NCBI GenBank assembly: GCA_964617045.1
Contig: CAZTVZ010000003.1
Location: 32,257-96,256, forward strand
Reading direction: 5' to 3'
From: an uncultured Gammaproteobacteria bacterium
GTDB lineage: Bacteria > Patescibacteriota > Microgenomatia > UBA8517
Length of the DNA: 64,000 bases
Part shown: positions 23,089 through 46,498 of the stretch, piece after piece
How positions within the stretch are numbered: the first letter of the stretch is position 1
Layout: the number at the start of each line of letters is the position of its first letter
Translations under genes and position numbers: made by a program
Notes under the pieces: model-generated
Told to the model about the DNA's origin: nothing
Database searches by the model: none
What the model saw: the letters and a program-made list of their open reading frames with translations, nothing else

Positions 23089-24799
23089 CCGTTGGAGAAG
23101 GTGTCAGTGTTTCGGTTTCTCTTTCTGGAATTGCTCCGACTTTTTTCTTGGCAATTCTTTTTAATAAACTTGCGAAATATATTAGTTCTCTCGACTTGAG
23201 AAGCATCGAAATACCAACATAAATTACCCCCCCCACCAAAATAACCATTATCGTAAGTATCAACAAATTGACCGTATATCTTGTGTCAAGAACAAATTTC
23301 TCGAAAGGTATCTGATTGCTCGCATCAATCTTGTTCATAAAAGACAACTGCTTAATCCAGACCGATCGATCGAAAAACTTTAGAAAAAAATACATTGTAA
23401 AACCGGATACTAACGAAGCAAAGAAAGATTTAGCAAAAGGAATAAATGTTCTTATCCCCTCTCCGTCTCCAATTTTCTTTTCCAAAAGAACAAACAATGT
23501 AATGGTTTGCAGAGAAGCGGCAAAAGAAAACGCCGCAGCCAATGCCCATACGGGTAATCCAAAATATTTAATCAAAATTAAATCCAAAATAATATTGATA
23601 GAAAGGGTAATCAGAGATACCGCAACGGGAGTCCTTGTATCGTGAAGGGCATAAAAACTTCTCGCTAAAACAGAGTTCGCGGCTTGGAAAAATACCCCAA
23701 AAGCAAAAGCAGACACAACCATTCCCGTTTGAACGGTCGATTCCCAACTGAAAATATCGGTGCCGAAAATAAGTCTTACAATCGGAATTCTTAAAACAAT
23801 GAGGACCGTAGCGATCGGCATTATTAAGAACGCTATTTGATACAGTGCACCAAAAAGCGTTCTTTTAAATTGGGTTCTGTCATCCGACTGCCTGGCCAAC
23901 GTAGGAAGAGCAGCTTTTGCGATCGATGTTCCAAATAAACCCACCGGAAGAAGTTGCACTGTATTCCCAAACGTAAAGAATGTATAAGAAGCAGTCGAAA
24001 TAATCGATGCTAAAGAGAGCTCGACCGATTTGGCAATCTGCAAAAATGACACCTCGATTATTCTGGGGAGTGCAAGCTTGCCGATCTTTTTAACATCTTC
24101 CGTAATTCTAATAATCGGTTTTATTCTGAATCCAAGTTTAATCGCGAGGGGAAGTTGAACGGCAAAATGGCAAAATGCTCCGAAGGCAACACCGATTGTC
24201 GGACCCATCAGTCCCATTGTCGGTGATAATACAACTGTTCCTAGTATTATCCCCAGGTTGTAAAAAAGTGGGGCTATAGCCGGAACAATAAATCTTCTTG
24301 AAGATTCCAAAACCGCGGTAAGAACATAACTTATTACAAAAAATCCTTGTGCGGCAAACAATATTCTGGTTAAAGATACTATTGTGTCACGGTCTGCTCC
24401 GGTAAAGCCTGGGGCAAGAATTCCATACAAATGTCCGGAGAAAAACGCGATTACCAACGCCATGACCACAAAAATAATCAATCCGATATTGGCAATTGTT
24501 CCCGCGATTTCCCAAGCATCTTTAGATCCTTTTTTTAAAGATTTGGTAAAAACAGGGATAAAAGCAGAAGCAAAAGTACCGAATACCAAAACCTCAAAAA
24601 TTAAATCGGGTAATCTAAAGGCTGCGAAAAAGAGAGATAGCTCGTTTGGTTCGAAAAAGTGCGCCAGAGCTCTTTGTCTGACAAGTCCAAGCACCCTTGA
24701 GGCAATCGTCATAAACATAATGATCGTTGCCGCGGAAAGGACAGAGCTTTGAGGGGAAGAAAATATCTTTTTCCCTTTGTTGATAATGTCGTTCACCAT
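23072..24799 (-). CDS. murJ: lipid II flippase MurJ (MviN)
   Basis: 575 aa and polytopic. The N-terminal sequence SAATIIMFMTIASRVLGLVRQRALAHFF...AFRLPDLIFEVLVFG is the MurJ signature. Confidence 0.85.
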   Translation of the reverse strand: MVNDIINKGKKIFSSPQSSVLSAATIIMFMTIASRVLGLVRQRALAHFFEPNELSLFFAAFRLPDLIFEVLVFGTFASAFIPVFTKSLKKGSKDAWEIAGTIANIGLIIFVVMALVIAFFSGHLYGILAPGFTGADRDTIVSLTRILFAAQGFFVISYVLTAVLESSRRFIVPAIAPLFYNLGIILGTVVLSPTMGLMGPTIGVAFGAFCHFAVQLPLAIKLGFRIKPIIRITEDVKKIGKLALPRIIEVSFLQIAKSVELSLASIISTASYTFFTFGNTVQLLPVGLFGTSIAKAALPTLARQSDDRTQFKRTLFGALYQIAFLIMPIATVLIVLRIPIVRLIFGTDIFSWESTVQTGMVVSAFAFGVFFQAANSVLARSFYALHDTRTPVAVSLITLSINIILDLILIKYFGLPVWALAAAFSFAASLQTITLFVLLEKKIGDGEGIRTFIPFAKSFFASLVSGFTMYFFLKFFDRSVWIKQLSFMNKIDASNQIPFEKFVLDTRYTVNLLILTIMVILVGGVIYVGISMLLKSRELIYFASLLKRIAKKKVGAIPERETETLTPSPTDSTPS

Positions 24800-24800
24800 C

Positions 24801-24829
24801 TTGAGTTTTTAGCCTCATTAGATTATACT
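24801..24829 (+). promoter_or_regulatory. sigma70-like promoter for rpsT (TTGAGT-17-TATACT), leaderless arrangement
   Basis: The -35 is at 24801-24806 and the -10 at 24824-24829. The rpsT ATG lies at 24836, only 6 nt after the -10. Confidence 0.45.
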
Positions 24830-24835
24830 CTCGTC

Positions 24836-25126
24836 ATGCCTGTAACGAAAACAGCCAAAAGAGCCCTTCGTGGTTCCAAACAAAAATTGTCAATCAACAC
24901 TTCCATAAGAGCATCGCTGGAAGCGGCTATTCGTATCGCCAAAAAATCAAAAACCGCAGAAAAAGTAAGAGCGGCAGTAAAACTTGCAGACAGAGCAGCC
25001 AAGAAAAACACAATTCACAAAAATAAAGCATCGAGAATAAAAAGCATGCTTTCGAAATTGGCTCCGACAACAAAATCGGCAGAAAAAAAGACAGTCGCAA
25101 AGAAAACAACCAAGGCTAAAAAATAA
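24836..25126 (+). CDS. rpsT: 30S ribosomal protein S20
   Basis: MPVTKTAKRALRGSKQKLSINTSIRASLEAAIRIAKKS... is Lys/Ala-rich and about 96 aa. The six-frame ORF begins 29 codons upstream, inside murJ. Confidence 0.85.
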   Translation: MPVTKTAKRALRGSKQKLSINTSIRASLEAAIRIAKKSKTAEKVRAAVKLADRAAKKNTIHKNKASRIKSMLSKLAPTTKSAEKKTVAKKTTKAKK

Positions 25127-25188: not shown

Positions 25189-25752
25189 ATGGCTGCCCAA
25201 AAAGGCTCAAAACTGATAAATCTTCTACCGCAAGAGGAATTTGCCAATTCCACAATTGGTCGTGTGTTTACGTGGGCAATGAGTACCTTCAGAATTATCG
25301 TTATTGGTATGGAGATGGTCGTCATGGTTGCTTTTCTTTCTCGTTTCTGGTTGGATGCCAGAAATGTTGATTTAAACGACATAATCAAACAAAGATCGGC
25401 TGTGATTGCCGCCCAATCCGATTTTGAAAAAGAATTTAGAGATCTTCAAAAAAGAGTTAAGGTTTTTTCCGGAATAACCGGTGTGGAAAAACTTCCTTCC
25501 GAACAAATTACAATTATTACTTCTTATATACCAAACGATGTCCGACTTGAGGCAATTAACCAGTCGGGTGAAAATTTTCAAATCAGAGGAAATTCTTTTA
25601 ACGAAATATCTATAAGCCAATTTATTGTTAACCTTGAAAAAAGCGGAAATTATGACAAGGTTCAGGTTTCAACACTCGATTCGGATCAAGAAGAGGGCGG
25701 ACTGTTTACATTTACTTTGAGTTTATCCCCCAAGAAAGGAGCATCTAAATAA
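25189..25752 (+). CDS. pilN: PilN-like type IV pilus assembly protein
   Basis: The conserved N-terminal INLLP motif (KLINLLPQEEF) is followed by a single TM and a periplasmic-type domain. Length is 187 aa. Confidence 0.6.
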   Translation: MAAQKGSKLINLLPQEEFANSTIGRVFTWAMSTFRIIVIGMEMVVMVAFLSRFWLDARNVDLNDIIKQRSAVIAAQSDFEKEFRDLQKRVKVFSGITGVEKLPSEQITIITSYIPNDVRLEAINQSGENFQIRGNSFNEISISQFIVNLEKSGNYDKVQVSTLDSDQEEGGLFTFTLSLSPKKGASK

Positions 25753-26406
25753 ATGGCACTCGGCTGGAGAAAAGATTACCTAAGATATCGTGAGCAATTT
25801 CTTAACGTTGTAAAACTTTACCAAAAAAGACAGGACTTAAGAATCTATCTTGAAGTAATTTTGTCTTTACTGACAATTATCTTTTTTGCTTTCTTTGCCT
25901 TAAGACCAACCATTCTGACAATATCTCAACTCTACAAAGACATTCAGGCAAAGGAGGAAGTTGTGCAAAAACTGGAAGAAAAAATAAACAATCTCGAATT
26001 GGCACAAGAATTGGTTGCCGAAAAACAAACAGTAATCGAAATTGCCCGACTGTCTGTTCCTGGCGAACCAACACCGGAAAGTTTTGCCAGACAAATTGAA
26101 GGACTATCACAAACAACAGGTATTACTCTATCGGGAATCTCGGTTGGAGAAGTAACAATACTCGGTGAAGCAAGAAAAACCGCTCAGGATAAAGATTTAA
26201 AACCTCTGCCCGAAGGCTCAATGGGAATGCCATTTACGATCAGTATATCGGGAGAATACGGAAATCTGTTTAATTTCCTCAGAAATTTGGAAAACCTGAG
26301 AAGGCCTGCTTCTATTGATAATATTTCCATTTCATCAACGATAAACGATGAGGGTATTGTAAAAATAACAATGATCGTATCGGGAAGGGTACCTTTTCTC
26401 AAATGA
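25753..26406 (+). CDS. pilO: PilO-like type IV pilus assembly protein
   Basis: Starts 1 nt after pilN. It has an N-terminal TM, a coiled-coil (QAKEEVVQKLEEKINNLELAQELVAEKQ), and a C-terminal ferredoxin-like region. Length is 217 aa. Confidence 0.5.
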   Translation: MALGWRKDYLRYREQFLNVVKLYQKRQDLRIYLEVILSLLTIIFFAFFALRPTILTISQLYKDIQAKEEVVQKLEEKINNLELAQELVAEKQTVIEIARLSVPGEPTPESFARQIEGLSQTTGITLSGISVGEVTILGEARKTAQDKDLKPLPEGSMGMPFTISISGEYGNLFNFLRNLENLRRPASIDNISISSTINDEGIVKITMIVSGRVPFLK

Positions 26407-26744
26407 AAAAATTTAAACCGCCAAGCTTTATCACAATATTAATTCTTACTGCAATTACCGTTGTCTTCTGGATATTTTTTGGTGTCGTAAGAATATTTAC
26501 AAAAGCCGATGAGGAAACTGTACCTGCAGCAATTCTTGCACCGCTATCCCCAACACTTGACAAGGATGTTCTGGATAAACTTCCTTCAAGGGTATATTTT
26601 GATGATAGTCAGATTTCAACAAATGTTGTTAGTTCACCCACACCGACGCCTTCAATCCAAATTCCCACTCCGACAGAAATTCTCGAAGCAACAGAGTCTG
26701 CAACACCAACGGCAACAGAAGGAGCAGTTATAGATGAAGAATAA
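26403..26744 (+). CDS. small bitopic membrane protein with acidic Thr/Pro-rich ectodomain (hypothetical)
   Basis: 113 aa. A TM (FITILILTAITVVFWIFFGVV) is followed by PTPTPSIQIPTPTE. It overlaps pilO by 4 nt and the next gene by 11 nt. Confidence 0.4.
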   Translation: MKKFKPPSFITILILTAITVVFWIFFGVVRIFTKADEETVPAAILAPLSPTLDKDVLDKLPSRVYFDDSQISTNVVSSPTPTPSIQIPTPTEILEATESATPTATEGAVIDEE

Positions 26745-28092
26745 GATTCCAACATTGATTGGTTTAGTAGTTCTTATATTTGGTTTAGCCGCCGGTGTTT
26801 TCCTTGTGCAAAACACAACAATTTTCAGATTGGGAGCTTCAGGAGAAAATGCACCTGAAAATGTAAGAATAACCAATATCTCGGATGTATCATTTACAGT
26901 CAGTTGGACAACATCAAAAGAAACCACGGGATTTATCAAATACGGAGAATCCGACAACTTGGGTAAAACCAAAAATGACGAACTTTCCGAAAAAGGATAT
27001 ACACATTACGCGACGATAAGCGGAGTAAAATCCGAATCTAATTACTATTTCAAAATAAATTCGGAGGGAGTCGATTATGACAACAATGGTGTTCCTTGGG
27101 AATTGACTACTGGACCCAATATACCCACAAACACCAGCCAAACGACCATCTCCGGAACGATACTCGAACAAACAGGTAATCCATCAAAAAATGCAATTGT
27201 ATACGTGACCATTGCAGGAAGCTCCCCTCTCTCGTCAACAACGTCTCAAAACGGATCATGGGTAATTCCGCTAAATTTTGCCAGAACACAGGACTTGTCT
27301 GCGTTTATCTTGATACAAGAATCTTCATCATTACTTGAAATATCCGTTAATGCTGGACCGAAAGGAATTGCTTCCGCACAAATATTTCCTCAATCGGCGA
27401 AACCGGTTCCTGCAATTACTCTTGGAACAACAAACGATTTTAGAAGCAACCCCCCGAGCTCTGTCGACGGAATACCTCAAGCTAACTTAACTATTCCAGA
27501 AATAACAGAGAAGAAATCCGGTTTTAATGTTGATGCCACAGTGGCGTCAAACGATAATAAAACGGTTACTTTAGAAAGCGTTGCAGACGGAGAAAAAATT
27601 TCAAGTGAAAAGCCCGAATTTTTCGGAAGTGGACCTTCTGGTACAACTATTACCATTACTGTTGAAAGCGATCCTCAAAGCGGTGAGGTAAAAGTCAACA
27701 ATTCCGGTGATTGGAATTGGACACCACCGGCAGGATTAGAACCCGGAACTCACACCGTTACAATTACATGGCGTGATGCTGCGGGGATATTAAGAAAACT
27801 TACAAGATCTTTTGTTGTTGAGGCATCAGAAAATCCATCTTTTACCGCGACCCCTTCTGCAACAACAACGGTAACACCAACTGCAACAAAAACACCTACA
27901 CCATCTTTAACACCAACTTCTTCGCCAACACCAACAGCATCTGTTTCAGCAACAAAAACACCTACACCATCTGCAGCACCTACAACACCCGAATCGGGCA
28001 GCTTGACCCCAACAATAATTCTATTTATGATGGGTATAGCGATCATTTTGTTCGCAACTGTTGCTTGGAAGAAATCTGAAATAAATGCCTGA
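26734..28092 (+). CDS. cell-surface protein: N-terminal TM anchor, FN3-like + Ig-like domains, Thr/Pro-rich linker, C-terminal sorting-signal-like TM tail
   Basis: Shows an FN3/purple-acid-phosphatase-N-like motif (VSFTVSWTT...TGFIKYGES...HYATISGVKSESNYYFKI). A long Thr/Pro linker (TATPSATTTVTPTATKTPTPSLTPTSSPTPTASVSATKTPTPS) is followed by TPESGSLTPTIILFMMGIAIILFATVAWKKSEINA. Confidence 0.6.
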   Translation: MKNKIPTLIGLVVLIFGLAAGVFLVQNTTIFRLGASGENAPENVRITNISDVSFTVSWTTSKETTGFIKYGESDNLGKTKNDELSEKGYTHYATISGVKSESNYYFKINSEGVDYDNNGVPWELTTGPNIPTNTSQTTISGTILEQTGNPSKNAIVYVTIAGSSPLSSTTSQNGSWVIPLNFARTQDLSAFILIQESSSLLEISVNAGPKGIASAQIFPQSAKPVPAITLGTTNDFRSNPPSSVDGIPQANLTIPEITEKKSGFNVDATVASNDNKTVTLESVADGEKISSEKPEFFGSGPSGTTITITVESDPQSGEVKVNNSGDWNWTPPAGLEPGTHTVTITWRDAAGILRKLTRSFVVEASENPSFTATPSATTTVTPTATKTPTPSLTPTSSPTPTASVSATKTPTPSAAPTTPESGSLTPTIILFMMGIAIILFATVAWKKSEINA

Positions 28093-29590
28093 CCAAAATC
28101 AAACTGACCCAAATGCTAATCCCATAGAACCTGTTTCCCCTCAGGCTCCCCCCCTACCAATGCCAGAAGAAATTCCCCCAATTACACCGGTTGTTGAAGA
28201 AGCAACACCGAATACCGAACCCATAAAAGAGAATGCCCTGTCCGAAGAAAATGTCCAACCGGCTTTTATGGCAACAGATTCTCCCCCTCCCCCTCCAATC
28301 CTTGAAACTGAAAACCCGACAAGAGAAGAAGTTGAAGGAAAAAGGGAAGATGATAATATGCCTGTTCCTGAAAAACCGAAAAAGAAATCTAAAGGTTTGG
28401 TTATTGGGCTTGTTGCAACTCTTCTTTTGATTGCAGGCTTGGGAGCAGGTGTTGTTTTGGTCAGACAACAACAGGACGTCAGGGAAAAAGCAGTCAGTTG
28501 TGGAGGAGCAGGTGCAACATGCCGCTTAAACGGCGATTGTTGTTCCGGAAAATGTAATTTAACCGGATATTCCGGAACTTGTGCAGCCCCAACAGGAACT
28601 CAAACACAATGTGTAAGCTCTGGAGGTGCCTGCACTTCAACTTCCCAATGTTGTGGAAATTTAAGCTGTAAGGGTGGAAAGTGTTTAACCGAAGAAGCAA
28701 GCACTCCCACTAAAACACCTACTGCAGCCGCGTGTATTGCCATAGGTCAAAGGTGTGCATCGGGAGAAACATGTTGTAATAACGGGAAATGTATTGACAA
28801 CAAGTGTTCACTATCTGGAACCAGTACACCGACTGCTCAACCCAACTGTTCCAAGGAGGGAGAGTTCTGTGGAATTGGAAGTGCAAACACAGGTCCGGTA
28901 AATTGTTGTAGCGGATTAAAATGTGACAATGGATATTCCATAGTCCACGCTACAGGATCAACCGGAAAATGTATAAAGGATGCTCCAAGCTGTGTACCTT
29001 TAGGGAAAAGGTGTGCATCAGGAGAAACATGTTGTAATAACGGGGTATGTTCCAATAATGTATGTGTCGCAACCACCCCTCCTCCGACCACAACCTTGTG
29101 TCCCAAATCATGTGTTGCGTCACCTAAATCAAATTGTAAACCCGGCACTTTCTATCCCAACGAAAGTACAAGCTTGGCTTATGGAGATTGTGGAGGAACA
29201 GGATTCAATGAATATTGTTGCGATCCTATTGACGGGGCACCAACAAAAATTCCGACATCAACAACAACTTCTACTCCCAAACCACCATCGGGTGATTACT
29301 GCCAATGTTTAAATGTTGTCGCATATGACACAAACTGGAACCTGCTAACAACAGATGCGTTGAAAAATCTTAAAGCTGGAGACAAAATAAGGTTCACGGT
29401 AAAAGGGCGGGCTTCAAGCGGAAAGTTCGATAAAGCAAAGTTTAAGATAAATGGACAGGAAACTGCCGAAATGACAACAAAGAAGCCAAACACCGAAGAG
29501 TTCTATTACGAATATACAATTCCTGCAAATGTATATTCATTTAAGATTGACGCCAAAATACATCATGATCAGAAAGGATGGTCAAACTAA
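28085..29590 (+). CDS. membrane-anchored secreted protein with five tandem 6-Cys knottin/hevein-like modules
   Basis: A Pro-rich N-terminal tail precedes a TM (LVIGLVATLLLIAGLGAGVVLV). Five modules follow, each C-x6-C-x5(11)-CC-x3-4-C-x4-15-C (for example CGGAGATCRLNGDCCSGKC...C and CIAIGQRCASGETCCNNGKCIDNKC). A C-terminal ~110-aa beta-rich domain ends the protein. There is no C-terminal TM. Confidence 0.6.
   Translation: MPDQNQTDPNANPIEPVSPQAPPLPMPEEIPPITPVVEEATPNTEPIKENALSEENVQPAFMATDSPPPPPILETENPTREEVEGKREDDNMPVPEKPKKKSKGLVIGLVATLLLIAGLGAGVVLVRQQQDVREKAVSCGGAGATCRLNGDCCSGKCNLTGYSGTCAAPTGTQTQCVSSGGACTSTSQCCGNLSCKGGKCLTEEASTPTKTPTAAACIAIGQRCASGETCCNNGKCIDNKCSLSGTSTPTAQPNCSKEGEFCGIGSANTGPVNCCSGLKCDNGYSIVHATGSTGKCIKDAPSCVPLGKRCASGETCCNNGVCSNNVCVATTPPPTTTLCPKSCVASPKSNCKPGTFYPNESTSLAYGDCGGTGFNEYCCDPIDGAPTKIPTSTTTSTPKPPSGDYCQCLNVVAYDTNWNLLTTDALKNLKAGDKIRFTVKGRASSGKFDKAKFKINGQETAEMTTKKPNTEEFYYEYTIPANVYSFKIDAKIHHDQKGWSN
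28750..29044 (+). repeat. internal 36-nt near-identical duplication (28750-28785 and 29009-29044) inside the Cys-module gene
   Basis: aggtgtgcatcgggagaaacatgttgtaataacggg differs from aggtgtgcatcaggagaaacatgttgtaataacggg at a single position. Both encode RCASGETCCNNG in modules 3 and 5. Confidence 0.8.
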
Positions 29591-29592
29591 TT

Positions 29593-30144
29593 ATGAAAAA
29601 TAAAGCCGTATCAATAATAATTTTGGTAATAACTTTACTTTTGGCGGGAGTTGCGATATTCACCGCTGTCAGATTGTACCAACTTAGACAAGAGTCTGTG
29701 GCTCCAACTGCACCAGAAAGTGAACCTGCTGCTGCTGCACCCGAATCATGTAGCTCGCTCTCCTTTACGATTGGTGAACCAACCGGAACACCGACAAACA
29801 CAATTACAACTACGCCAATTGTTAAAGATTGTGCACAGTCGTGTGCAGCCAGTAGTGAATGTAAATCCGGACTTATTTGTTCCAACGGATCATGCAGAAA
29901 TCCTTCTTGTACATCCGAAACAGATTGTGTCTGTCCAACAGCAACAACCACAACAACTTCAACACCTACCGCGACATCGACTGTAACCTCAACAGTAACG
30001 ACAACTGCAACTTCGACATCGACTGTAACCTCAACAATTACGCCAACGGCAACTCTACCAGATGCAGGCATTCCTGCTCCGACAGTATTCGGAATTAGTT
30101 TCGGTGTCCTACTCCTTATTATTGCCGTTGCTCTCGCGCTTTAA
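29593..30144 (+). CDS. small Cys-rich surface protein with Thr-rich linker and LPDAG + C-terminal TM sorting-signal-like tail
   Basis: Has a signal-anchor (MKNKAVSIIILVITLLLAGVAIFTAV) and an 8-Cys module (CAQSCAASSECKSGLICSNGSCRNPSCTSETDCVC). A poly-Thr linker is followed by TLPDAGIPAPTVFGISFGVLLLIIAVALAL. An alternative start at 29578 is possible. Confidence 0.5.
   Translation: MKNKAVSIIILVITLLLAGVAIFTAVRLYQLRQESVAPTAPESEPAAAAPESCSSLSFTIGEPTGTPTNTITTTPIVKDCAQSCAASSECKSGLICSNGSCRNPSCTSETDCVCPTATTTTTSTPTATSTVTSTVTTTATSTSTVTSTITPTATLPDAGIPAPTVFGISFGVLLLIIAVALAL
29930..30060 (+). repeat. low-complexity Thr/Ser codon repeat (linker-coding), including a direct 21-nt repeat acatcgactgtaacctcaaca x2
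   Basis: ACN/TCN-rich. Similar linker-coding tracts occur at about 27850-27990 and about 30740-30900. Confidence 0.7.
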
Positions 30145-30192
30145 TTGTTGATAAAATTTTTTCATAGGGCAAAATGTATTAAGGCTTAATCT

Positions 30193-30981
30193 ATGTTCGA
30201 TCAAAACCAACAAAATCAAATTCCTTTCACCCCACCACCGGTCCCTCAGGGAGAACCGGTTCCTCCACAACCAATGGACATGCCACCCATGCCTCAAATG
30301 GGTATCGCAACTCCTCCTCCCGGAGAAAAGAAAGCCGCCAGCGGAAAAATAATTGCAACCGTGTTTGCAATTTTCATCCTTGTCGGTGGACTTGCGGCAG
30401 GATTGATTCTTGTAAGAAGAAATCAAGACTTAAGAGAGCAAGCAGAAACAACCTGTGTTGAAGAATGCCCGGGTGTCGATTCCGGTGGAAGAAGCGTTTT
30501 AAGAAACTGTACACCGCCAGAAGCCGACGGCACTTCTGACGATCAAATCTGTAACTTGGCTGGCAGAACAGGACAGTGTGGAGGACAACAATATTGTTGT
30601 CCGGCAGCAGGAGGGGTTTGGACAACAAATATGACAGCGTGTACGCCCAAGGAATCTGTGTGCAACGATTCCATAGACAATGACAATGATGGATTAACCG
30701 ATTGTACCGACTCTGATTGTTCGACTTCGACATATTGCCAAGCAACACCTACCGAAACACCTTCCATTACATCGACGCCGTCGGCAACAACAACGATAAG
30801 CCCAACTTCAACCGCAACTTCGACGGCAACAATAACAGCAACAAAAACACCGACTTTGACATCAACTGCAACAGCAACTGTCAGCCCACCCATTCCAGAT
30901 TCAGGTCTTCCACTTCCAACCGTGATAGCATTTGGTTTTGGGGCACTACTTGTAATAATCTCCTTGGTACTTGTCCTTTAA
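30193..30981 (+). CDS. Cys-rich surface protein: Pro-rich N-tail, TM, hevein/knottin-like and TSP3-like Ca-binding Cys motifs, Thr linker, IPDSG + C-terminal TM tail
   Basis: The N-terminus is PFTPPPVPQGEPVPPQPMDMPPMPQ, with a TM (IIATVFAIFILVGGLAAGLILV). It contains CNLAGRTGQCGGQQYCC (C-x8-C-x5-CC) and CNDSIDNDNDGLTDCTDSDC (DxDxDGxxDxxD). It ends PPIPDSGLPLPTVIAFGFGALLVIISLVLVL. Confidence 0.5.
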   Translation: MFDQNQQNQIPFTPPPVPQGEPVPPQPMDMPPMPQMGIATPPPGEKKAASGKIIATVFAIFILVGGLAAGLILVRRNQDLREQAETTCVEECPGVDSGGRSVLRNCTPPEADGTSDDQICNLAGRTGQCGGQQYCCPAAGGVWTTNMTACTPKESVCNDSIDNDNDGLTDCTDSDCSTSTYCQATPTETPSITSTPSATTTISPTSTATSTATITATKTPTLTSTATATVSPPIPDSGLPLPTVIAFGFGALLVIISLVLVL

Positions 30982-31008
30982 ACCTCGTCAAATTATGATT
31001 TCTGTAAT

Positions 31009-33042
31009 ATGGATTATCTGAGCATTTTATATTGGTGGATATTTTTATTTTTACTGGGGCTTATAAACTACCCTTTTTCGTTCATTCTTCTGAGGAAAAA
31101 CTCCGATCGCGGTTACGGATTATCCAAAATTATATCTCTTCTTCTGATTAGCTACATCCTTCTTTTGGGTTCTTCGCTCAAGTTGTTTCCTTTTACGATA
31201 TATTCTTCCCTTTCCGCGTTGCTTCTTCTTGTTTTTGTTAACACACTAATCTTTCTAAAAAATAAAAGGGAAATTATTCGTGACACAAAACTAACTATTC
31301 GATTAATTATCTTTCAGGAAATATTATTTTCCTCCGCATTACTCTTTTGGTCTTTTATTAAAATGCACAACCCTGACATTCGAAGCTTGGAAAAATTTAT
31401 GGATTACGGGTTTATAAACTCGATCTTAAAAAGCCCTTGGCAACCTGCTCAGGACATGTGGTTTGCCGGAGGAAAAATAAATTATTATTATTTCGGACAT
31501 TTCTATACTGCAGTTGCCACAAGATTGTCTTTTCTGCCCAGCTCAATTACTTACAACCTCATGCTGTCCACAATTTTAGGGTTTTTAGTTAACGGAGCCT
31601 ATTCTCTGGTGCACACGATTTTTTCATCTCTCCCTAAAGGGATCAACAAAAAAGCGGTTTCTGCAGGGATAATTTCATTTCTGCTTGTATCTTTCGCGGG
31701 AAATTTCCATACGCCGATATATGCCTTTCAAAAAGGAATCGATAAATATTGGTATCCGGATGCGACAAGATTCATCGGTTATAATCCCGACACCAACGAC
31801 AAAACAATACATGAATTTCCCCTCTACTCTTTCGTCGTGTCTGATCTGCATGCCCACTTATTGGGAATTCCAATCGTAATTCTTTATTTGAGTTTCCTGT
31901 TCATGATTTTCGGCTCTTCCGAAAATATAACATTTCGAAAACGCATCCCGTTCTTGCTGTTCCCAGGATTTTTATTCGGGCTTATGTTTATGACCAACAC
32001 CTGGGATTTTGCCTCATATATGCTAATCACCGGAGTTTGCCTCGTTATGTCACGGATATCTCTATTTAAAGATATTGGCAATATTTCTCAAGCCGTCTAT
32101 GACATTTCTTTAAACATTATTATTCTTCTTGTTATTGGCTTGATTACTGCGCTTCCGTTTATCCTTAATTTCGAATCAATTGCGGAGGGTGTGCAATTTG
32201 TAACTTCACGCTCCCCGGTTTGGCAATTGTTAATCTTATGGGGACTTCCGATACTACTTCTTGTTTTCTTTTCGGCTTTTATTATCGCAAAAAAGAAAGC
32301 CGAAAAATCAGATCTCTTTATTTTGGGACTATTGGTATCCTCTATTCTTCTCATTATCATCCCTGAAATCATATACGTAAAAGACATTTATATTGCATCT
32401 CATTACAGGGCCAATACTATGTTTAAAATTACCTATCAAGCATTTGTAATAGGTTATCTTTCGAGTGGATATGTTGCATTAAGAATAATCACTGGAATAA
32501 AAAATATTCCGTTTCGTATATTGTCCACAACGGTTTTTACTTTGCTATTTTCTGCAATGCTGACGTATCCGTTTTTTGCAGTAAATTCATATTTCGACAA
32601 ACTGGAAAACAAAACTGGCTTAAATGGAGAAACTTGGATTAAAAACACCTATCCCTCAACATATCGTGCTATTGAATATTTAAGGAATACCGTTTCCGAA
32701 CAAAAAATAATTACTGAAGCATCTGGAAACAGCTATACGGACTACAACGTAATTTCCAGCTATACTGGCCTTCCAACAATACAAGGGTGGTTTGTCCACG
32801 AGTGGTTATGGAGAGGAAGTGCAGAATTGCCCTCAGAAAGAGTCTCTGATCTGGAGATTCTATACACATCGAAAAATATTAACGAAGTAAAAAAGATAAT
32901 AGAAAAATATAAAGTTAACTACTTAATATACGGTTTTTTTGAAAAAGAAAAATATCCCAACAACAACGAACTATTAATAGACAGTCTCGGAGAAATAGTA
33001 TTTACCGATGGTGATACTACTATTTATTCAGTTGATTATTAA
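31009..33042 (+). CDS. DUF2298 / 'YYY'-domain polytopic membrane protein (GT-C-type putative glycosyltransferase)
   Basis: 677 aa with more than 12 predicted TMs. The signature Tyr triplet GGKINYYYFGHFYTAV is present. A C-terminal soluble domain follows. Confidence 0.65.
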   Translation: MDYLSILYWWIFLFLLGLINYPFSFILLRKNSDRGYGLSKIISLLLISYILLLGSSLKLFPFTIYSSLSALLLLVFVNTLIFLKNKREIIRDTKLTIRLIIFQEILFSSALLFWSFIKMHNPDIRSLEKFMDYGFINSILKSPWQPAQDMWFAGGKINYYYFGHFYTAVATRLSFLPSSITYNLMLSTILGFLVNGAYSLVHTIFSSLPKGINKKAVSAGIISFLLVSFAGNFHTPIYAFQKGIDKYWYPDATRFIGYNPDTNDKTIHEFPLYSFVVSDLHAHLLGIPIVILYLSFLFMIFGSSENITFRKRIPFLLFPGFLFGLMFMTNTWDFASYMLITGVCLVMSRISLFKDIGNISQAVYDISLNIIILLVIGLITALPFILNFESIAEGVQFVTSRSPVWQLLILWGLPILLLVFFSAFIIAKKKAEKSDLFILGLLVSSILLIIIPEIIYVKDIYIASHYRANTMFKITYQAFVIGYLSSGYVALRIITGIKNIPFRILSTTVFTLLFSAMLTYPFFAVNSYFDKLENKTGLNGETWIKNTYPSTYRAIEYLRNTVSEQKIITEASGNSYTDYNVISSYTGLPTIQGWFVHEWLWRGSAELPSERVSDLEILYTSKNINEVKKIIEKYKVNYLIYGFFEKEKYPNNNELLIDSLGEIVFTDGDTTIYSVDY

Positions 33043-34045
33043 CCCACGATCTTAAATCTTCCCAAGATCCGGAAGCAGGTATAAAAACATATTGATGATC
33101 ATACTTAGAACTAATAGGAGGATTAAAAAGATATTCTTCCGGAATATTATGTTGTCTAATATCATTTCTTGCGTTAACAACAAGTTTTCCTAACACCCCC
33201 AGTGAACCAAATTTGAGATCTGTTTCAATATATTTTTCTGCCACCCTCCATGATTCATACAATTTCACCGGATTTAAAAGAATTTGGTAAGTAAGCATTT
33301 TGTCTTTGATCGAATTTATTACTTTTTGTTGTCTTGCCGAACGAGCCAAGTCAGTTCCTTCATCCCCCTGTGCGTTTCTTGATCTCACAAATTTCAGAGC
33401 AGTATCGCCATTCATTTTCTGGATTCCTTTTTCAAAAACAATCGTTTCGTATCTGCATTTCAATTCTTTGTCGCCGTCACAAAGATCATTCTCTTTACCC
33501 TTGATGGGATACTTCGGATCTGTAAATGCATTTTCCACATCAACATCTATTCCGCCGATCACATCAACTATTTCCGTAAATCCGTCGAAATCAATAACAA
33601 TCCCGTAGTTTATCTTTTCTTGTAACAATTCAGAGGCAATATCTTTTGCAAAGGATAATCCTGTTGTTTCATCTTTTTGCTTTCCCCAATAATAGGCACT
33701 GTTTATTTTCGCTCTAATGGATGGGATCCAAACATCCCTGGGAATAGAAATTGTATCAATCTTGGATTTTTCGGAAGAAATACTTACAAGCATTATGGAA
33801 TCGGTCAAGTCAGATCCATCGTGTCCTGCTCCTGATTTTCCGAGAACCAACAAGTTAACCCTTCCTTCCTGGTTTTCGATTTTTGTCAAATCGGTATTAA
33901 CATAATCCATAGCCAGGGAGAAAAACTTTCCAAAATCCATTTTTGCTAAGAAGAAGTAAAGAAACATAAAGAGTGATATGACAAATAACAAAAACAGCCC
34001 GATTCTTATAGCTTTTCGTGAAGGTATTTTAGATTCTTTTTCCAT
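33020..34045 (-). CDS. LytR-CpsA-Psr (LCP) family cell-wall glycopolymer ligase
   Basis: After an N-terminal TM comes the LCP core VNLLVLGKSGAGHDGSDLTDSIMLVSIS...IPRD. The C-terminal region is extended. It converges on the YYY gene and overlaps it. Confidence 0.85.
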   Translation of the reverse strand: MEKESKIPSRKAIRIGLFLLFVISLFMFLYFFLAKMDFGKFFSLAMDYVNTDLTKIENQEGRVNLLVLGKSGAGHDGSDLTDSIMLVSISSEKSKIDTISIPRDVWIPSIRAKINSAYYWGKQKDETTGLSFAKDIASELLQEKINYGIVIDFDGFTEIVDVIGGIDVDVENAFTDPKYPIKGKENDLCDGDKELKCRYETIVFEKGIQKMNGDTALKFVRSRNAQGDEGTDLARSARQQKVINSIKDKMLTYQILLNPVKLYESWRVAEKYIETDLKFGSLGVLGKLVVNARNDIRQHNIPEEYLFNPPISSKYDHQYVFIPASGSWEDLRSWVNNQLNK

Positions 34046-43062: not shown

Positions 43063-44553
43063 ATGAAAAATTTTATCGTTAAACATGACAGGTTTTTTCA
43101 AAGATTGCTGGAAATTCTTCCCGGCTTTTTTTCTTGGAATGTAATACTTTTCCCTTACTGGGGTATTTTCGTAATACCGGACGTTGTCGCCTACTTCGTT
43201 CTTCTCTATAACATTTACTGGTTTTATCAGTCGGTCCAAATAGCAGGATCGGCAATTATTTCCCATCTTAGGATTCAGGCTTCAATGAATTACGATTGGA
43301 TAGGAGATTTAAAAAATTTTCCAGATTACAAGAAGGTTCACCATGTAGTAATTATTCCAACCTACAAAGAGCCTCTGCACATCTTGCAAAGAACTCTTAA
43401 TTCACTTGCCGGACAGACACTGTCAACAAAACAGATTACTGCAGTTCTGGCAATGGAAAAGAAAGAACCGGAAGAGGACAGACTTGCAAAAGTAAAGGTT
43501 TTGAAAAAAGAGTTCGGTAAAGTCTTTGCAAACCTAATTATTACGGTACACGAATTACAGGTCGGAGAAGTTGTTGGTAAAGCATCAAACGAAAGATACG
43601 CTGCTATTGAAGTAAAAAAACAACTAGTCGACAAGGAGGGTATGAATATCGACTACATGACGGTTACATCCTGTGATGCAGACCACAAATACCATCCTCA
43701 ACATTTTGCAGTACTTACCTATCGATTCCTTGATAATCCAAACAGATATAAATTCTTCTGGCAACCGGCAGTCATGTTTTACAACAATATCTGGGAGCTT
43801 CCGGCGATAACAAGAGTTCCCAATACTTTTGGTTCTATATGGAACTTATCTCAACTTCCTCGAAAAGACAGATTGATAAATGCTCAGAACTATTCTTTGT
43901 CGTTCAAGCTTCTTGATAGAGTTGGATATTGGGATGCAAGCATTATCCCTGAAGACTGGAACATATTTTTCAAAGCTTTTTATAAAGCAGGAGGAGGAAT
44001 AGAAGTCGAACCGATTTATCTTCCCTTGCATGCAGACGCAGCTCAATCAACATCTTTCTGGAAAACAGTTAAGAATCAGTATGAACAATTTAAACGATGG
44101 GCTTGGGGCGTATCCGACGATCCCTGGATAATCAAAAATTATTTGTCCACACCCGAAATTCCATTTTGGGATAAAACAATGAGACTTCTTACAGCACTGT
44201 GGGCACATTTCTTGTGGCCTGTAAACTGGTTCATCATCACCTTGGGTATTACAATTCCCACCCTCCTTAATCCTGCATTTGGAAGAACAACATTGGGCTA
44301 TACGGTTCCCAAGTTGTCATCCTTTATCCTAACCGTAGCTTTAGCTTTCCTTGTTGTCACTCTGATAATCGACTATATCTACAAGCCGAAAAGACCGCAG
44401 GGATTCCCTTTGTGGAGAGCGATTCTTGTGCCTTTTGAATTTGTATTGATGCCCATCGCCGGATTTTTCTTTTCGGCTCTTCCCGGTCTTGATGCTCACA
44501 CAAGACTTATGCTTGGAAAATACATTGAATACAAAGTTACTGAAAAAGTATAA
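43063..44553 (+). CDS. processive family-2 glycosyltransferase (membrane-embedded, cellulose/hyaluronan-synthase-like)
   Basis: Shows VVIIPTYKEP, SCDADH (a DxD-like motif) and QYEQFKRWAWG (QxxRW). There are N-terminal TMs and a C-terminal TM bundle. Confidence 0.75.
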   Translation: MKNFIVKHDRFFQRLLEILPGFFSWNVILFPYWGIFVIPDVVAYFVLLYNIYWFYQSVQIAGSAIISHLRIQASMNYDWIGDLKNFPDYKKVHHVVIIPTYKEPLHILQRTLNSLAGQTLSTKQITAVLAMEKKEPEEDRLAKVKVLKKEFGKVFANLIITVHELQVGEVVGKASNERYAAIEVKKQLVDKEGMNIDYMTVTSCDADHKYHPQHFAVLTYRFLDNPNRYKFFWQPAVMFYNNIWELPAITRVPNTFGSIWNLSQLPRKDRLINAQNYSLSFKLLDRVGYWDASIIPEDWNIFFKAFYKAGGGIEVEPIYLPLHADAAQSTSFWKTVKNQYEQFKRWAWGVSDDPWIIKNYLSTPEIPFWDKTMRLLTALWAHFLWPVNWFIITLGITIPTLLNPAFGRTTLGYTVPKLSSFILTVALAFLVVTLIIDYIYKPKRPQGFPLWRAILVPFEFVLMPIAGFFFSALPGLDAHTRLMLGKYIEYKVTEKV

Positions 44554-44596
44554 TTTATATTTTCCTCACAACTAAGTTATACTAATTAAGAATCCC

Positions 44597-46099
44597 ATGA
44601 ATAAACTTCGGGAACACTTGAATTTAATAATTGGAAAAACACAAATACCAAAGTGGTTGGCCATACTGCTTGGAATAATAATTGTTCTTAGAATCCCCTC
44701 TCTTTTTGAACCTTTTTACTATGGTGACGAAACAATATATCTGACTTTGGGAAACGGAATAAAAAAAGGGCTAGTCCTCTATCAACAAATATATGACAAC
44801 AAACCTCCCCTTCTTTATCTGACTGCGGCAATCGCAGGGAATGTTTTTTGGTTTAAAGCAATCCTTCTTCTTTGGAATATGATTACGGTAACTATCTTCT
44901 GGCATTTATCTAAGTTATTCTTTTCGGGTAAAGAAAAAATTATAAAAATAGCAACAATAATTTTCGGCGTTCTAACATCCATACCTATGTTTGAAGGAAA
45001 TATTGCCAATGCCGAATTATTCATGATTGGTCCAATTATTTTAGCCATATTTCTTCTTTTTAAAGAAAAATCTTCCTGGATTAACAAATTAATTGCGGGT
45101 GTTCTTTTTGCAATTGCAGCACTTTATAAAATGCCCGCAGCATTTGATTTACCTGCAATCATTGTCTTTTGGCTTATCACGAACGGTTTTACAAAGGAAG
45201 GTATTAAAAAATCCTTAAAGGACACCTTACTACTGCTGATTGGGTTTGCTATTCCGCTGATCGGTTCCTTTATTTATTTCTTCTTCAAAGGTGCAGTTTT
45301 GGATTATTTGTTTGCTGCCTATTTGCAAAACTTCGGTTATTTATCCAGCTGGAGAGAGGGTTCACAAGGCGGATCACTTCTTAATAATCTTCCTCTTATT
45401 ATTAGAGGTTCAATTGTTATTGCTGGAATCTTAGTTTTGTATATTAAAAGAAAAATTTTATCCAAAGAATTTCTGTTTATTTGTATTTGGCTGCTATTCG
45501 GACTTTTTGCCGTTGCTCTTTCCGAAAGACCATATCCGCATTACTTAATTCAAGTTGTTCCGGAAATATCTCTCCTTTTGGGAATCCTTATTGCCGATAA
45601 AACAATAAAACAAAGTCTTGTTGTTATTCCCTTACTCTTAGCGTTTTCCGTACCGGTAATCTACAAGTTCTGGTATTATCCCTCAACTTCCTACTATGCC
45701 AAGTTTATTAAATTTTCTTTAGGAATAAAAAACAGAGCCGAATACTTTTCTTCATTTGGGAAATATGTTAATCATAATTACGAGCTAGCCGATTTTATTG
45801 GAAATGCCACAGCCCCTGACGAAAAGATATTTGTTTGGGGTCCAGAAAGTCCAAACATCTATTCTCTCTCCAGAAGACTTCCGCCATCGAAATACGTTGC
45901 CGATTATCACTTTTTCGATTATGCCGACATGAAGAAAGAAGCAGACATCATAATCAATGCAAAGCCTTCATTTATTATCGTTCTTTCCAACTCCAGACCC
46001 TATCCAGAACTTACTTCCCAAATAAAGAAACATTATTATCAAATATCCGACACTAACGGTTCGGAAATATGGAGAATAAGAAGAATACCTCTAAAATAA
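44597..46099 (+). CDS. GT-C family glycosyltransferase (PMT/ArnT-like, GT39/GT83-type)
   Basis: 500 aa and polytopic. The first-loop motif FEPFYYGDETIYL is a DE motif. A C-terminal soluble domain is present. Confidence 0.6.
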   Translation: MNKLREHLNLIIGKTQIPKWLAILLGIIIVLRIPSLFEPFYYGDETIYLTLGNGIKKGLVLYQQIYDNKPPLLYLTAAIAGNVFWFKAILLLWNMITVTIFWHLSKLFFSGKEKIIKIATIIFGVLTSIPMFEGNIANAELFMIGPIILAIFLLFKEKSSWINKLIAGVLFAIAALYKMPAAFDLPAIIVFWLITNGFTKEGIKKSLKDTLLLLIGFAIPLIGSFIYFFFKGAVLDYLFAAYLQNFGYLSSWREGSQGGSLLNNLPLIIRGSIVIAGILVLYIKRKILSKEFLFICIWLLFGLFAVALSERPYPHYLIQVVPEISLLLGILIADKTIKQSLVVIPLLLAFSVPVIYKFWYYPSTSYYAKFIKFSLGIKNRAEYFSSFGKYVNHNYELADFIGNATAPDEKIFVWGPESPNIYSLSRRLPPSKYVADYHFFDYADMKKEADIIINAKPSFIIVLSNSRPYPELTSQIKKHYYQISDTNGSEIWRIRRIPLK

Positions 46100-46136
46100 T
46101 TGTCAGTCGAACTCACTTAGAGTAAAATTACGCAAG

Positions 46137-46496: not shown

Positions 46497-46498
46497 AC

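Follow-up and report, generated by a model that had tools for sequence, protein, structure and literature searches.

What do PilN-like and PilO-like proteins do in a gene cluster that continues with surface proteins? In every well-studied system, Saccharibacteria (PMC11623550) included, pilN and pilO adjoin pilM. In the window (the whole stretch of DNA analysed, 64 kb), genes for such proteins open a cluster on the plus strand at 25189-33042, which the initial annotation described as a nine-gene overlapping operon and took for a scaffold repurposed for the display of surface proteins. Nearly all the elements it listed were found where it had placed them, but the cluster has eight genes, g1 to g8; the count of nine is reached only when rpsT (24749-25126), 62 nt upstream of g1, is included. 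The genes considered here, in ORF coordinates of the window, are as follows.

1833-2507, minus strand: sortase, 224 aa (Pfam Sortase, 77 bits)
2520-4718, minus strand: 732-aa membrane protein with an FtsA/PilM-like actin fold, candidate partner of PilN/PilO
25189-25752, plus strand: g1, PilN-family bitopic protein, 187 aa (Pfam PilN)
25753-26406, plus strand: g2, PilO-family bitopic protein, 217 aa (Pfam PilO)
26403-26744, plus strand: g3, small bitopic protein, 113 aa (no Pfam or PDB relative)
26734-28092, plus strand: g4, Ig-like surface protein, 452 aa (Pfam FN3, CarboxypepD_reg-like, Big_13)
28085-29590, plus strand: g5, N-terminally anchored Cys protein, 501 aa (Cys pattern)
29578-30144, plus strand: g6, small Cys-rich protein, 188 aa, or 183 aa if the start is 29593 (ortholog sorting signals)
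30193-30981, plus strand: g7, Cys-rich protein, 262 aa (BLAST and sorting signal)
31009-33042, plus strand: g8, DUF2298/Chlor_Arch_YYY polytopic membrane protein, 677 aa (Pfam, TIGR03662)
33020-34045, minus strand: LCP (LytR-CpsA-Psr) glycopolymer transferase, 341 aa (Pfam LytR_cpsA_psr, 109.7 bits)

Layout and conservation of the cluster

The junctions from g1 to g8 are 0, -4, -11, -8, -13, +48 and +27 nt. The gaps thus stay below 50 nt, as first described, but the overlaps are not confined to 1-11 nt, the exception being g5/g6 (-13 nt); with the ATG at 29593 as the start of g6, a choice that fits its orthologs, this junction would be +2 nt. Such packing is nothing special in this genome; the unrelated genes uvrD and femAB, for example, share 4 nt as well. 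In a scan for consensus promoters and terminators, the cluster did not exceed shuffled sequence in number of matches, which is weak evidence. The LCP gene does converge on the end of the cluster, where it overlaps g8 by 23 nt, and its position is unchanged in relatives. Wall and division genes abound in the neighbourhood (murJ, LCP, femAB, ftsK and mltG).

Synteny was compared in 80 species-level genomes, and gene presence was counted on the 61 loci with enough sequence. The cluster was found in all Woesebacteria sampled, a group of very small bacteria known from uncultured members. PilN, PilO and g3 are present in 61/61 loci, g3 always directly after PilO, and all six core genes in 50/61. Median core junctions are 1, -4, -4, 4 and 4.5 nt, and insertions occur in no locus at the first three, which join PilN, PilO, g3 and g4. 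On the other side, g4 is absent in 6 of the 61 loci, and in five loci the g4/g5 junction is interrupted by unrelated genes. The gene set keeps its synteny across the 80 genomes, in agreement with the operon first proposed. However, the order nusA, infB, dnaJ, dnaK, grpE, hrcA, murJ, rpsT, cluster, LCP, uvrD is kept in nearly all 80 loci. Because the dnaK-to-uvrD neighbourhood is conserved as a whole, synteny alone is no proof of functional coupling, and the conserved order of the cluster may reflect genome stability.

PilN, PilO and the pilus genes around them

In the g1 protein, the INLLP motif (nt 25216-25230, within KLINLLPQEEF) is cytoplasmic, the TM helix contains an invariant Glu, and the PilN domain is extracytoplasmic. 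The protein matches Pfam PilN with 39.9 bits (cut-off 22.8), its ortholog profile matches M. xanthus PilN (3jc8_N, E = 6.8e-7), and 26 orthologs show no variation at residues N11, L12, L13, P14 and E42. In the g2 protein, a conserved cytoplasmic N-terminus leads into a TM helix, followed by a coiled coil and then a ferredoxin-like domain. The protein matches Pfam PilO with 24.4 bits (cut-off 22), a model matched by 29 of 40 orthologs (best 1.9e-11), and the 40-ortholog profile matches M. xanthus PilO (3jc8_O, E = 1.8e-8). E. coli HofN also finds the PilN/PilO genes in tblastn, although weakly. Judged by the Pfam thresholds and the Myxococcus 3jc8 profiles, g1 and g2 are a genuine PilN-PilO family pair, as initially assigned, and the invariant INLLP N-terminus of PilN implies a PilM-type partner.

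The pair closely recalls the alignment subcomplex PilM-PilN-PilO(-PilP) of the type IVa pilus (P. aeruginosa, M. xanthus 3jc8, T. thermophilus 2ych). Both have adjacent bitopic PilN and PilO paralogs of the same topology, a PilM-docking INLLP N-terminus on PilN and, in the PilP position, a third small membrane protein; the homology to the Myxococcus proteins is at profile level. The third protein here, g3, has an N-terminal TM helix, a conserved membrane-adjacent segment of ~35 aa and a Pro/Thr-rich tail, and searches of Pfam and PDB, profile search included, found no relative. Unlike the type IVa subcomplex, the cluster has no upstream pilM, PilP beta-domain, lipobox or PilQ, its PilO has the conserved cytoplasmic N-terminus and its PilN the invariant TM Glu, and its downstream genes encode sortase substrates instead of a secretin.

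The absence of pilM, pilin, ATPase and secretin genes alongside was confirmed. A Pfam scan of 54 of the larger ORFs of the window found no pilM, pilB/T, pilC, pilD, pilin or secretin, a prepilin motif scan was negative, and tblastn with E. coli HofB, HofC, PpdD, HofM and HofQ gave a best E of 0.63. No pil core gene was found in the ~10 kb past the end of the window or within ±10 kb in the 80 relatives either, and PilN/PilO stand alone beside rpsT in 80/80 genomes, never adjacent to pilM, pilB or pilC. The cluster resembles the T4P loci of monoderm and CPR bacteria (Clostridium, Streptococcus sanguinis, Saccharibacteria TM7x loci 1 and 2; PMC11623550) in having proteins of the PilM/N/O set without a secretin and in a host without an outer membrane, which like TM7x belongs to the Patescibacteria; those loci, however, combine pilM, pilN and pilO with pilB, pilC, pilT, pilD and pilins. 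PilB, PilT, PilC and PilM of T4P are present in most Patescibacteria phyla (PMC11623550), these genes are enriched in CPR (PMC6744442), about 88% of small-celled Patescibacteria MAGs have them (PMC8672522), and for a Microgenomates T4P locus PilM is listed but PilN and PilO are not (PMC7143001). Given these reports of T4P core genes in most Patescibacteria, a conventional partner probably exists.

Within the window, the PilM-like candidate is the 732-aa protein, whose actin-fold domain (residues 13-256) is connected by a disordered linker to a TM helix, with a baseplate-J/gp47-like ectodomain after it. Its gene always adjoins the sortase gene, also in relatives; the fusion and the pairing noticed at first both hold. 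The actin-fold domain (~240 residues) looks like a minimal ASKHA core and probably has no 1C subdomain, which in PilM forms half of the PilN-binding groove.

Surface proteins, sortase and the glycosylation slot

Sortase-type signals (xPx[T/S/A]G followed by a hydrophobic tail) stand at the C-termini of three downstream proteins, g4, g6 and g7, and no other ORF of the window has one. In g4, a Thr/Ser/Pro stalk (residues 361-430) precedes TPESG (nt 27985-27999), a TM helix and WKK, and 55 of 65 orthologs have xPx[TSAV]G with a hydrophobic tail. In g6 the N-terminal TM helix is near-invariant; a Thr-rich stalk and LPDAG (nt 30055-30069) with a TM helix follow, and LPx[S/A/V]G with a hydrophobic tail is found in 63/63 of its orthologs. 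The g5 protein is built of a Pro-rich cytoplasmic head, a TM helix, exactly five knottin-like C-C-CC-C-C modules (nt 28499-29065), the number originally reported, and a C-terminal beta-sandwich (nt 29267-29587); it contains 38 Cys. This last domain is conserved among orthologs and is predicted by AlphaFold (pLDDT 88.6) as a generic Ig/FN3-like sandwich (best PDB E = 0.019). There is no C-terminal anchor in g5 and no sorting signal in any of 68 orthologs. The N-terminus of g7 has a g5-like Pro-rich cytoplasmic head and TM helix, by which BLAST ties it to g5 orthologs; then follow an acidic double-disulfide repeat (NCBIfam acid_disulf_rpt, 36.7 bits, under the cut-off of 41), a Thr-rich stalk and IPDSG (nt 30892-30906) with a TM helix. 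The gene is an extra copy that varies among lineages; ORFs resembling g7 were labelled by BLAST in just a dozen loci or so. The TM segments of PilN, g3, g4, g5 and g6 are unusually conserved.

The only sortase of the window matches TIGR01076 with 51.5 bits and reaches the cut-off of no class model. It keeps the VVFGHS and LVTC motifs with the expected catalytic His and Cys, and an Arg-rich stretch directly after the Cys; from these motifs it is apparently intact, and it is likely the processing enzyme for g4, g6 and g7. These three as substrates fit the display part of the initial proposal. Its pilus-independent part fits less well, given the implied PilM-type partner and the widespread T4P genes. 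The tails of g6 and g7 lack the positive charge of classic LPXTG signals, and NCBIfam LPXTG-anchor models gave no match, which counts against the sortase step.

The slot after g6 holds PMT in 45 and YYY in 14 of 55 loci, and PMT and/or DUF2298 in all 55, with PMT_2, STT3-like, TMEM260-like and YfhO genes alongside; its content and strand differ among loci. Here it is occupied by g8, which matches Pfam DUF2298 with 344 bits and TIGR03662 with 477 bits and has the motif NYYYFG at nt 31480-31497. The YYY assignment is therefore secure, but the GT-C assignment is not: hhalign against the PMT family of the relatives gave 1.2% probability and no profile similarity, and a PDB search found no sequence relative of DUF2298. 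As in PMT/GT39 O-mannosylation (Actinobacteria, eukaryotes), the PMT gene of most relatives directly follows genes for proteins with Thr/Ser/Pro stalks, whereas the DUF2298 protein in this slot showed no profile similarity to the PMT genes. With their Thr/Ser/Pro-rich stalks and a PMT or DUF2298 gene alongside, the surface proteins are probably sugar-coated.

In Actinomyces oris (GspA, LcpA), there is likewise a C-terminal xPxTG-like pentapeptide with a hydrophobic segment, Thr/Ser/Pro stalks, a sortase in the genome and an LCP protein, whose gene here lies at the cluster end. The cluster differs in its motifs (LPx[S/A]G and xPx[T/S]G, then conserved TxWPT or xLTPT), in the missing basic tail of g6 and g7, in having no pilin motif or class C sortase at the locus, and in the PilN/O linkage, which is without counterpart there. 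The Pam pili, a CPR-specific appendage with homologs reported in Microgenomatia, share Ig-like proteins and membrane-anchored accessory proteins with the cluster; their operon, compared by description only, has donor-strand pilins and PapD-like chaperones beside ATP synthase genes and is reported without PilN/PilO or sortase signals (bioRxiv 10.64898/2026.03.03.709456).

Machine part, neighbours or separate scaffold

We tentatively prefer, at somewhat less than an even chance, to read the cluster as a Woesebacteria-wide envelope operon with PilN-PilO-g3 as invariant core, which supplies the platform and wall proteins of a type IV filament machine. PilN and PilO, assisted by g3 in the manner of PilP, would form its heterodimeric membrane platform, docked through the INLLP N-terminus of PilN onto a PilM-type actin-fold protein encoded elsewhere in the genome, as the ATPase, PilC and pilins would be. 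The g4-g7 proteins would be co-transcribed with the platform genes and exported; the adjacent polytopic enzyme (DUF2298 here, a PMT-family O-mannosyltransferase in most relatives) would glycosylate their stalks, and the sortase would cut g4, g6 and g7 at xPx[T/S/A]G for wall attachment while g5 stays membrane-anchored. In a cell without outer membrane, PilP and PilQ, the four would together make up the wall-proximal or outer portion of the filament machine, as a collar, an anchor or an adhesin. We infer the physical interactions, the glycosylation, the sortase processing and the distant pil core alike. The wide occurrence of T4P PilB/T/C/M in Patescibacteria speaks for this filament-machine reading. 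Against it count the lack of pil core genes nearby in this genome and the 80 relatives, and the separation from pilM, which pilN and pilO adjoin elsewhere. The tie of PilN/O to g4-g8 is one of gene order, shared with dnaK, grpE, hrcA, murJ, rpsT and uvrD; the losses of g4 and the g4/g5 insertions weigh against one operon, and the unproven GT-C nature of DUF2298 against the glycosylation step.

A possible, somewhat less probable explanation is that PilN, PilO and perhaps g3 are split-off T4P alignment proteins, and that g4-g8 with LCP form a cassette of their own, unrelated to the pilus, for wall glycoproteins anchored by sortase, kept downstream by frozen gene order. Conservation is not specific to the cluster, because the whole nusA-to-uvrD region keeps its order, and the uvrD/femAB overlap, the breaks at g4 and the variable GT-C slot agree with mere neighbourhood. 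The analogous sortase, LCP and glycoprotein pathway of Actinomyces oris reportedly works without PilN/O. On the other hand, the PilN-PilO-g3-g4 junctions are tight and free of insertions, the window's three sortase substrates all lie in this operon, and the promoter and terminator scan gives weak evidence for its unity.

It is rather unlikely that PilN, PilO and g3 dock via INLLP to the 732-aa protein as a scaffold without type IV pilin or ATPase, and that this platform, with the 732-aa protein and the sortase, organises the export and glycosylation of g4-g7 and their sortase-mediated wall attachment, or polymerisation, into a surface structure. Such a scaffold would suit the symmetry by which the FtsA/PilM-like fold adjoins the sortase and PilN/O adjoin the window's only sortase substrates, the 0/80 genomes with PilN/O next to pilM, pilB or pilC, and the conserved TM segments. 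Helicobacter pylori offers a precedent for platform reuse by another envelope machine: its flagellar cage uses PilM, PilN and PilO with no other pilus genes near, although H. pylori keeps pilM, absent here, in the same operon and the partner machine, the flagellum, is known (PMC10823254). Against the scaffold stand the short actin-fold domain, probably lacking the 1C part of the PilN groove, the conventional partner made probable by T4P genes in most Patescibacteria, and sortase systems elsewhere that work without PilN/O. Finally, that g1 and g2 are generic coiled-coil bitopic proteins, such as DivIC/FtsB-like divisome components, is very improbable and disfavoured by the profile evidence: g2 and 16 of 40 orthologs do match Pfam DivIC below its cut-off (24.4 against 28.9 bits for g2) amid wall and division genes, but this match is confined to the TM helix and coiled coil, whereas the globular domains specifically match PilN and PilO, INLLP is without variation in orthologs, and HofN weakly finds the genes.

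For the organism, PilN and PilO are probably parts of a type IV pilus machine whose other genes lie elsewhere, which the wall proteins either assist or merely adjoin in gene order, and the cluster may be just the missing piece of an ordinary machine of this kind. Its linkage of PilN/PilO to wall-anchored surface proteins is one without earlier description.

The cluster and its PilN and PilO proteins

The cluster consists of eight ORFs on the forward strand between 25189 and 33042; the initial annotation counted nine genes, and its own list also comes to eight.

Genes of the cluster and the convergent LCP gene (window positions, strand, product)
25189-25752, +, g1, PilN-like protein, 187 aa
25753-26406, +, g2, PilO-like protein, 217 aa
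26403-26744, +, g3, small bitopic protein, 113 aa
26734-28092, +, g4, FN3/Ig-like surface protein, 452 aa
28085-29590, +, g5, Cys-rich protein of five modules, 501 aa
29578-30144, +, g6, small Cys-rich protein, 188 aa (orthologs favour a start at 29593)
30193-30981, +, g7, small Cys-rich protein, 262 aa
31009-33042, +, g8, DUF2298/YYY membrane protein, 677 aa
33020-34045, -, LCP gene, convergent, overlapping g8 by 23 nt

The successive junctions from g1 to g8 are 0, -4, -11, -8, -13 (or +2), +48 and +27 nt, and the end of the upstream rpsT lies 62 nt from the cluster. Overlaps are also common among functionally unrelated genes of this genome, and promoter and terminator scans of the cluster returned promoter-like and terminator-like sites in numbers no higher than in shuffled sequence. 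The LCP catalytic domain encoded at 33020-34045 is above threshold (109.7 bits in Pfam and 94.3 bits with TIGR00350).

Judged by their sequences, PilN and PilO are genuine members of their families, and the earlier assignment of both survives profile searches. The g1 product scores 39.9 bits against PilN (PF05137, cut-off 22.8), and the profile of 26 g1 orthologs matches the Myxococcus PilN chain of the pilus-machine structure 3jc8 (3jc8_N, E = 6.8e-7). The g2 product passes PilO (PF04350) narrowly, with 24.4 bits at a cut-off of 22; a Pfam PilO match is found in 29 of 40 g2 orthologs, and the profile of these 40 matches the PilO chain of the same structure (3jc8_O, E = 1.8e-8). The protein is bitopic with a coiled-coil topology, and its gene lies 3' of pilN. 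A sub-threshold DivIC match to g2 spans the TM helix and the coiled coil only, and an identity as DivIC was rejected.

The N-terminus of g1, KLINLLPQEEF, carries the (I/V)NLLP PilM-binding motif in a short cytoplasmic segment that is followed by one TM helix, and N11, L12, L13 and P14 are invariant among the 26 orthologs. PilN is thus predicted from this motif to be built to dock a PilM-type protein. Also invariant among the orthologs are a glutamate within the TM helix (E42) and the membrane-adjacent stretch AFLSRFWLDA. The g2 orthologs share a conserved cytoplasmic N-terminus of ~30 aa, in which Y23 is invariant and W5, Y9, R11, Y12 and F16 occur in at least 90%. To our knowledge, neither these PilN features nor the conservation of the PilO N-terminus has a counterpart in canonical PilN or PilO. 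An exhaustive profile search at E <= 1e-30 delimits a PilN subfamily of 294 clusters at 50% identity, the best 150 of which are all 111-211 aa long, lengths that fit a PilN standing alone or part of one.

Gene order in relatives and the search for other pilus genes

A scan at one genome per species found 165 relatives, and the best 80 of them, all Woesebacteria/Microgenomates MAGs, were read. Many MAG records with Woesebacteria-type synteny (e.g. the relatives' loci L006, L007, L012 and L018) are titled "uncultured Gammaproteobacteria" and are evidently mislabelled. Synteny of the gene set is found across related genomes, the cluster order being kept in the 80 best of the 165 relatives. Complete Woesebacteria genomes that carry the cluster include CP011214.1, CP066686.1 and OY970314.1, and it is also present on the 685-kb contig Ga0395805_0000004. 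The shared order, with arrowheads for gene direction, is dnaK<, grpE<, hrcA<, murJ<, rpsT>, PilN>, PilO>, g3>, g4>, g5>, g6>, the polytopic protein(s), LCP< and uvrD>. Among these best 80 of 165, 61 loci have enough sequence for counts of gene content: PilN-PilO-g3 is present in 61/61 and the full set of six core genes in 50/61, and g4 is missing in 6/61. The median junctions across relatives are 1, -4, -4, 4 and 4.5 nt, and PilN-PilO-g3(-g4) is the tightest unit and is never interrupted. Between g4 and g5, two unrelated genes are inserted in five loci (L016, L027, L058, L063 and L071). Those of L016 encode a 325-aa membrane protein of unknown type and a 211-aa protein with a PEP-utilising-enzyme mobile domain, and the ORFs inserted in the other four are similar in size. 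Conserved order alone is no proof that PilN and PilO act with g4-g8, because the flanking housekeeping genes are also conserved in order; the clade simply has a stable gene order.

The slot after g6 holds a PMT-family gene in 45/55 loci, usually on the opposite strand, and DUF2298 in 14/55, with both in four. More broadly, the g6-LCP interval, 4-9 kb downstream of PilN in L001-L084, is a variable island: it encodes large polytopic proteins (PMT, PMT_2, STT3-like, TMEM260-like, YfhO and DUF2298) whose number and strand vary by species. The g8 product in this slot had been described as a YYY GT-C membrane protein. Its family membership stands: it exceeds the family cut-offs (344 bits in Pfam; 477 bits for TIGR03662, Chlor_Arch_YYY, cut-off 300) and has the YYYxG motif as NYYYFG at residues 158-163. 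The GT-C relationship did not receive the same backing, since hhalign of DUF2298 orthologs against the relatives' PMT orthologs gave a probability of 1.2% with thin profiles, and no PDB sequence match was found for g8. The GT-C label draws on the Pfam clan membership that we take DUF2298 to have, and on the slot that it shares with PMT, STT3-like and TMEM260-like genes in relatives. A second envelope-glycan cluster lies at 43063-49394, with a GT2, a weakly PMT_2-like polytopic protein, a GT4 (MraY/WecA-type), a UbiA prenyltransferase and a PEGA+SH3 protein.

The reported absence of pilM, pilin, ATPase and secretin genes was confirmed in the window, in 89 related loci (1.57 Mb) and in ~10 kb past the window end. 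Neither the window nor the ±10 kb sampled in the 80 loci yielded a PilM, and rpsT occupies the upstream side of pilN. The window and the 89 related loci contain no prepilin subunit, PilB-type ATPase, PilC or PilD; the lowest E in a tblastn search of the 1.57 Mb with E. coli HofB, HofC, PpdD, HofM and HofQ was 0.63, and a motif scan found no prepilin motif. The ~10 kb beyond the window end hold housekeeping genes, dnaA and dnaN, and no pilus genes. The window lies near the replication origin region (window end at about 61600-64000, and 1-10000 of the downstream locus L087), with dnaA and dnaN ~7 kb past its end on a contig of this organism that is 147 kb long; between the window end and this pair lie a Wzy_C gene and a DUF4012 envelope gene. 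Genes occasionally inserted beside PilN in relatives were considered as PilM and rejected; they are regulators or toxin-type genes, among them one for a winged-helix regulator, one for a PIN protein and several for Fic proteins. In one relative, locus L076, an OmpR-type winged-helix (Trans_reg_C) protein is encoded at 6492-7493, immediately 5' of PilN and in the same orientation, and may be a local operon regulator.

Sortase-type surface proteins and the actin-fold protein beside the sortase

A feature beyond the initial description is the sortase-type ending of g4, g6 and g7, which are the only ORFs of the 64-kb window to have one. Their signals (TPESG in g4, LPDAG in g6 and IPDSG in g7) have Pro as the second and Gly as the fifth residue; a Thr/Ser/Pro-rich stalk of ~70 residues leads up to each, and a hydrophobic segment comes after it. 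The signal is present in 63/63 g6 orthologs and 55/65 g4 orthologs, and in none of the PilN, PilO, g3 and g5 orthologs. By its sequence it is an atypical sorting signal: the positions that follow the Gly are conserved, as TxWPT in g6 and xLTPT in g4, and g4 has a basic tail (WKK), whereas g6 and g7 have none and end in ...LAL or ...LVL. No NCBIfam LPXTG-anchor model matched at E <= 1. A type IV pilin identity was rejected for g3-g6, which have neither a G|FTLxE-type signal nor Glu5.

No relatives of g3 were found in Pfam or PDB, profile search included. The g4 product contains FN3, CarboxypepD_reg-like and Big_13 domains. The 38 Cys of g5 make exactly five C-C-CC-C-C modules, and its conserved C-terminal domain gives a confident AlphaFold model (pLDDT 88.6) of a generic Ig/FN3-like sandwich for which no PDB entry is a significant neighbour, a fold that points to no function. 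A homolog search with this domain returned 5 short proteins only; these metagenomic predicted proteins of 110-154 aa (P0241-P0245) carry the g5-type C-terminal beta-sandwich and may be fragments or stand-alone versions. Both g4 and g5 show the pattern GxxAGVxL...Q...A after the TM helix. The N-terminal TM region of g6, LAGVAIFTAIRLYQLRQxxVAP (window 29578-29700), is almost invariant over ~60 species (L001-L084), a conservation far above that of an ordinary signal peptide.

The motifs in which the catalytic His and Cys are expected are present in the sole sortase encoded in the window (1833-2507, -), which reaches no class model cut-off and matches no defined sortase class. The clusters of Gram-positive sortase-assembled pili include a pilus-specific class C sortase, and their subunits have a pilin-motif Lys, whereas the operon here lacks a sortase, the only one being 23 kb away, and by direct reading g4 lacks a YPKN-type motif. 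Membership in the recently described CPR Pam pili (bioRxiv 10.64898/2026.03.03.709456) was also rejected, as operon content and genomic context differ from that paper's description.

Adjoining the sortase gene is the gene for a 732-aa protein (2520-4718, -), in which the initial annotation had placed a PilM-like actin-fold domain. This description holds at the level of the fold, on the basis of a structural model and its Foldseek match to PilM, and fails at the level of sequence: no Pfam match to PilM_2 or T2SSL was found at E <= 10, nor any PDB sequence match. The AlphaFold model of the N-domain (40 sequences) has a confidence of ~90 over most of residues 13-256, and its top structural neighbour is P. 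aeruginosa PilM (E = 3.9e-8). The domain is predicted to be an FtsA/PilM-type ASKHA fold reduced to a minimal two-lobe core, with only ~240 residues in the modelled core 1A+2A secondary-structure pattern. In PilM a 1A/1C groove binds the N-terminus of PilN; for the 732-aa protein, such a groove and a specific identity as PilM are at most putative. C-terminal to the domain come ~100 aa of disordered linker, a TM helix and an ectodomain resembling phage baseplate J/gp47, an architecture that appears undescribed. The gene always has alaS on one side and the sortase gene on the other, both in Woesebacteria and in one Curtissbacteria genome. The pair itself sits between alaS and ruvX-mltG, at 1833-4718 (-) in the window, 10001-12871 in the related locus L085 and 4408-7072 in L086.

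Possible roles of PilN and PilO

The simplest reading is that PilN and PilO are the type IV filament alignment proteins of this lineage, encoded away from the remaining pilus genes. Against the local absence of such genes, the literature points the other way, to type IV pilus (T4P) core genes being common in Patescibacteria. Reports of PilB, PilT, PilC and PilM cover most Patescibacteria phyla (PMC11623550), CPR show an enrichment in T4P components (PMC6744442, in whose supplementary tables no pilus family identifiers were found), and ~88% of small-celled Patescibacteria MAGs have T4P components (PMC8672522). The single T4P locus of one complete Microgenomates genome is listed with PilM and with neither PilN nor PilO (PMC7143001). 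In Saccharibacteria pilM, pilN and pilO occur together (PMC11623550), whereas here pilN and pilO have no pilM nearby. The partners of PilN and PilO in the operon would be wall-anchored and probably glycosylated proteins, and we tentatively favour, at somewhat less than an even chance, that PilN and PilO are alignment proteins whose operon partners form a wall-side part of the machine. That they are alignment proteins and the operon partners mere neighbours, as a clade of stable gene order would allow, is somewhat unlikely.

It is unlikely that PilN and PilO instead form a pilin-free platform working with the actin-fold protein and the sortase, a reading for which the two parallel gene pairings and a precedent in Helicobacter (PMC10823254) speak. 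We regard as rather doubtful the specific proposal that PilN, PilO, g3, the membrane-tethered FtsA/PilM-like protein and the adjoining sortase constitute an undescribed pilin-free envelope machine. It is similarly doubtful that this machine would assemble or anchor the glycosylated LPXTG-type g4, g6 and g7 and the knottin-repeat g5 into a Woesebacteria-specific surface structure. If true, the pilin-free machine would be the second takeover of a PilMNO platform by another system, after the Helicobacter flagellar cage. That g1 and g2 are not PilN and PilO at all is very improbable given their profile matches, and was rejected.

The searchable literature yielded no description of a linkage between PilN/O and sortase substrates, nor of sortase substrates in CPR. 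The lifestyle of CPR/Patescibacteria is one of attachment to other cells, with a surface machinery of which little is known. If PilN and PilO are pilus alignment proteins, the cluster names wall-side T4P partners in a cell that lacks an outer membrane; we know of nothing that replaces PilP and PilQ in such cells. If they act with the sortase and the actin-fold protein, this would be a new way to organise sortase-dependent surface display. Either reading yields candidates: a sortase-substrate family with an unusual signal, a conserved pair of a sortase and an FtsA/PilM-like protein, and a variable glycosyltransferase slot.
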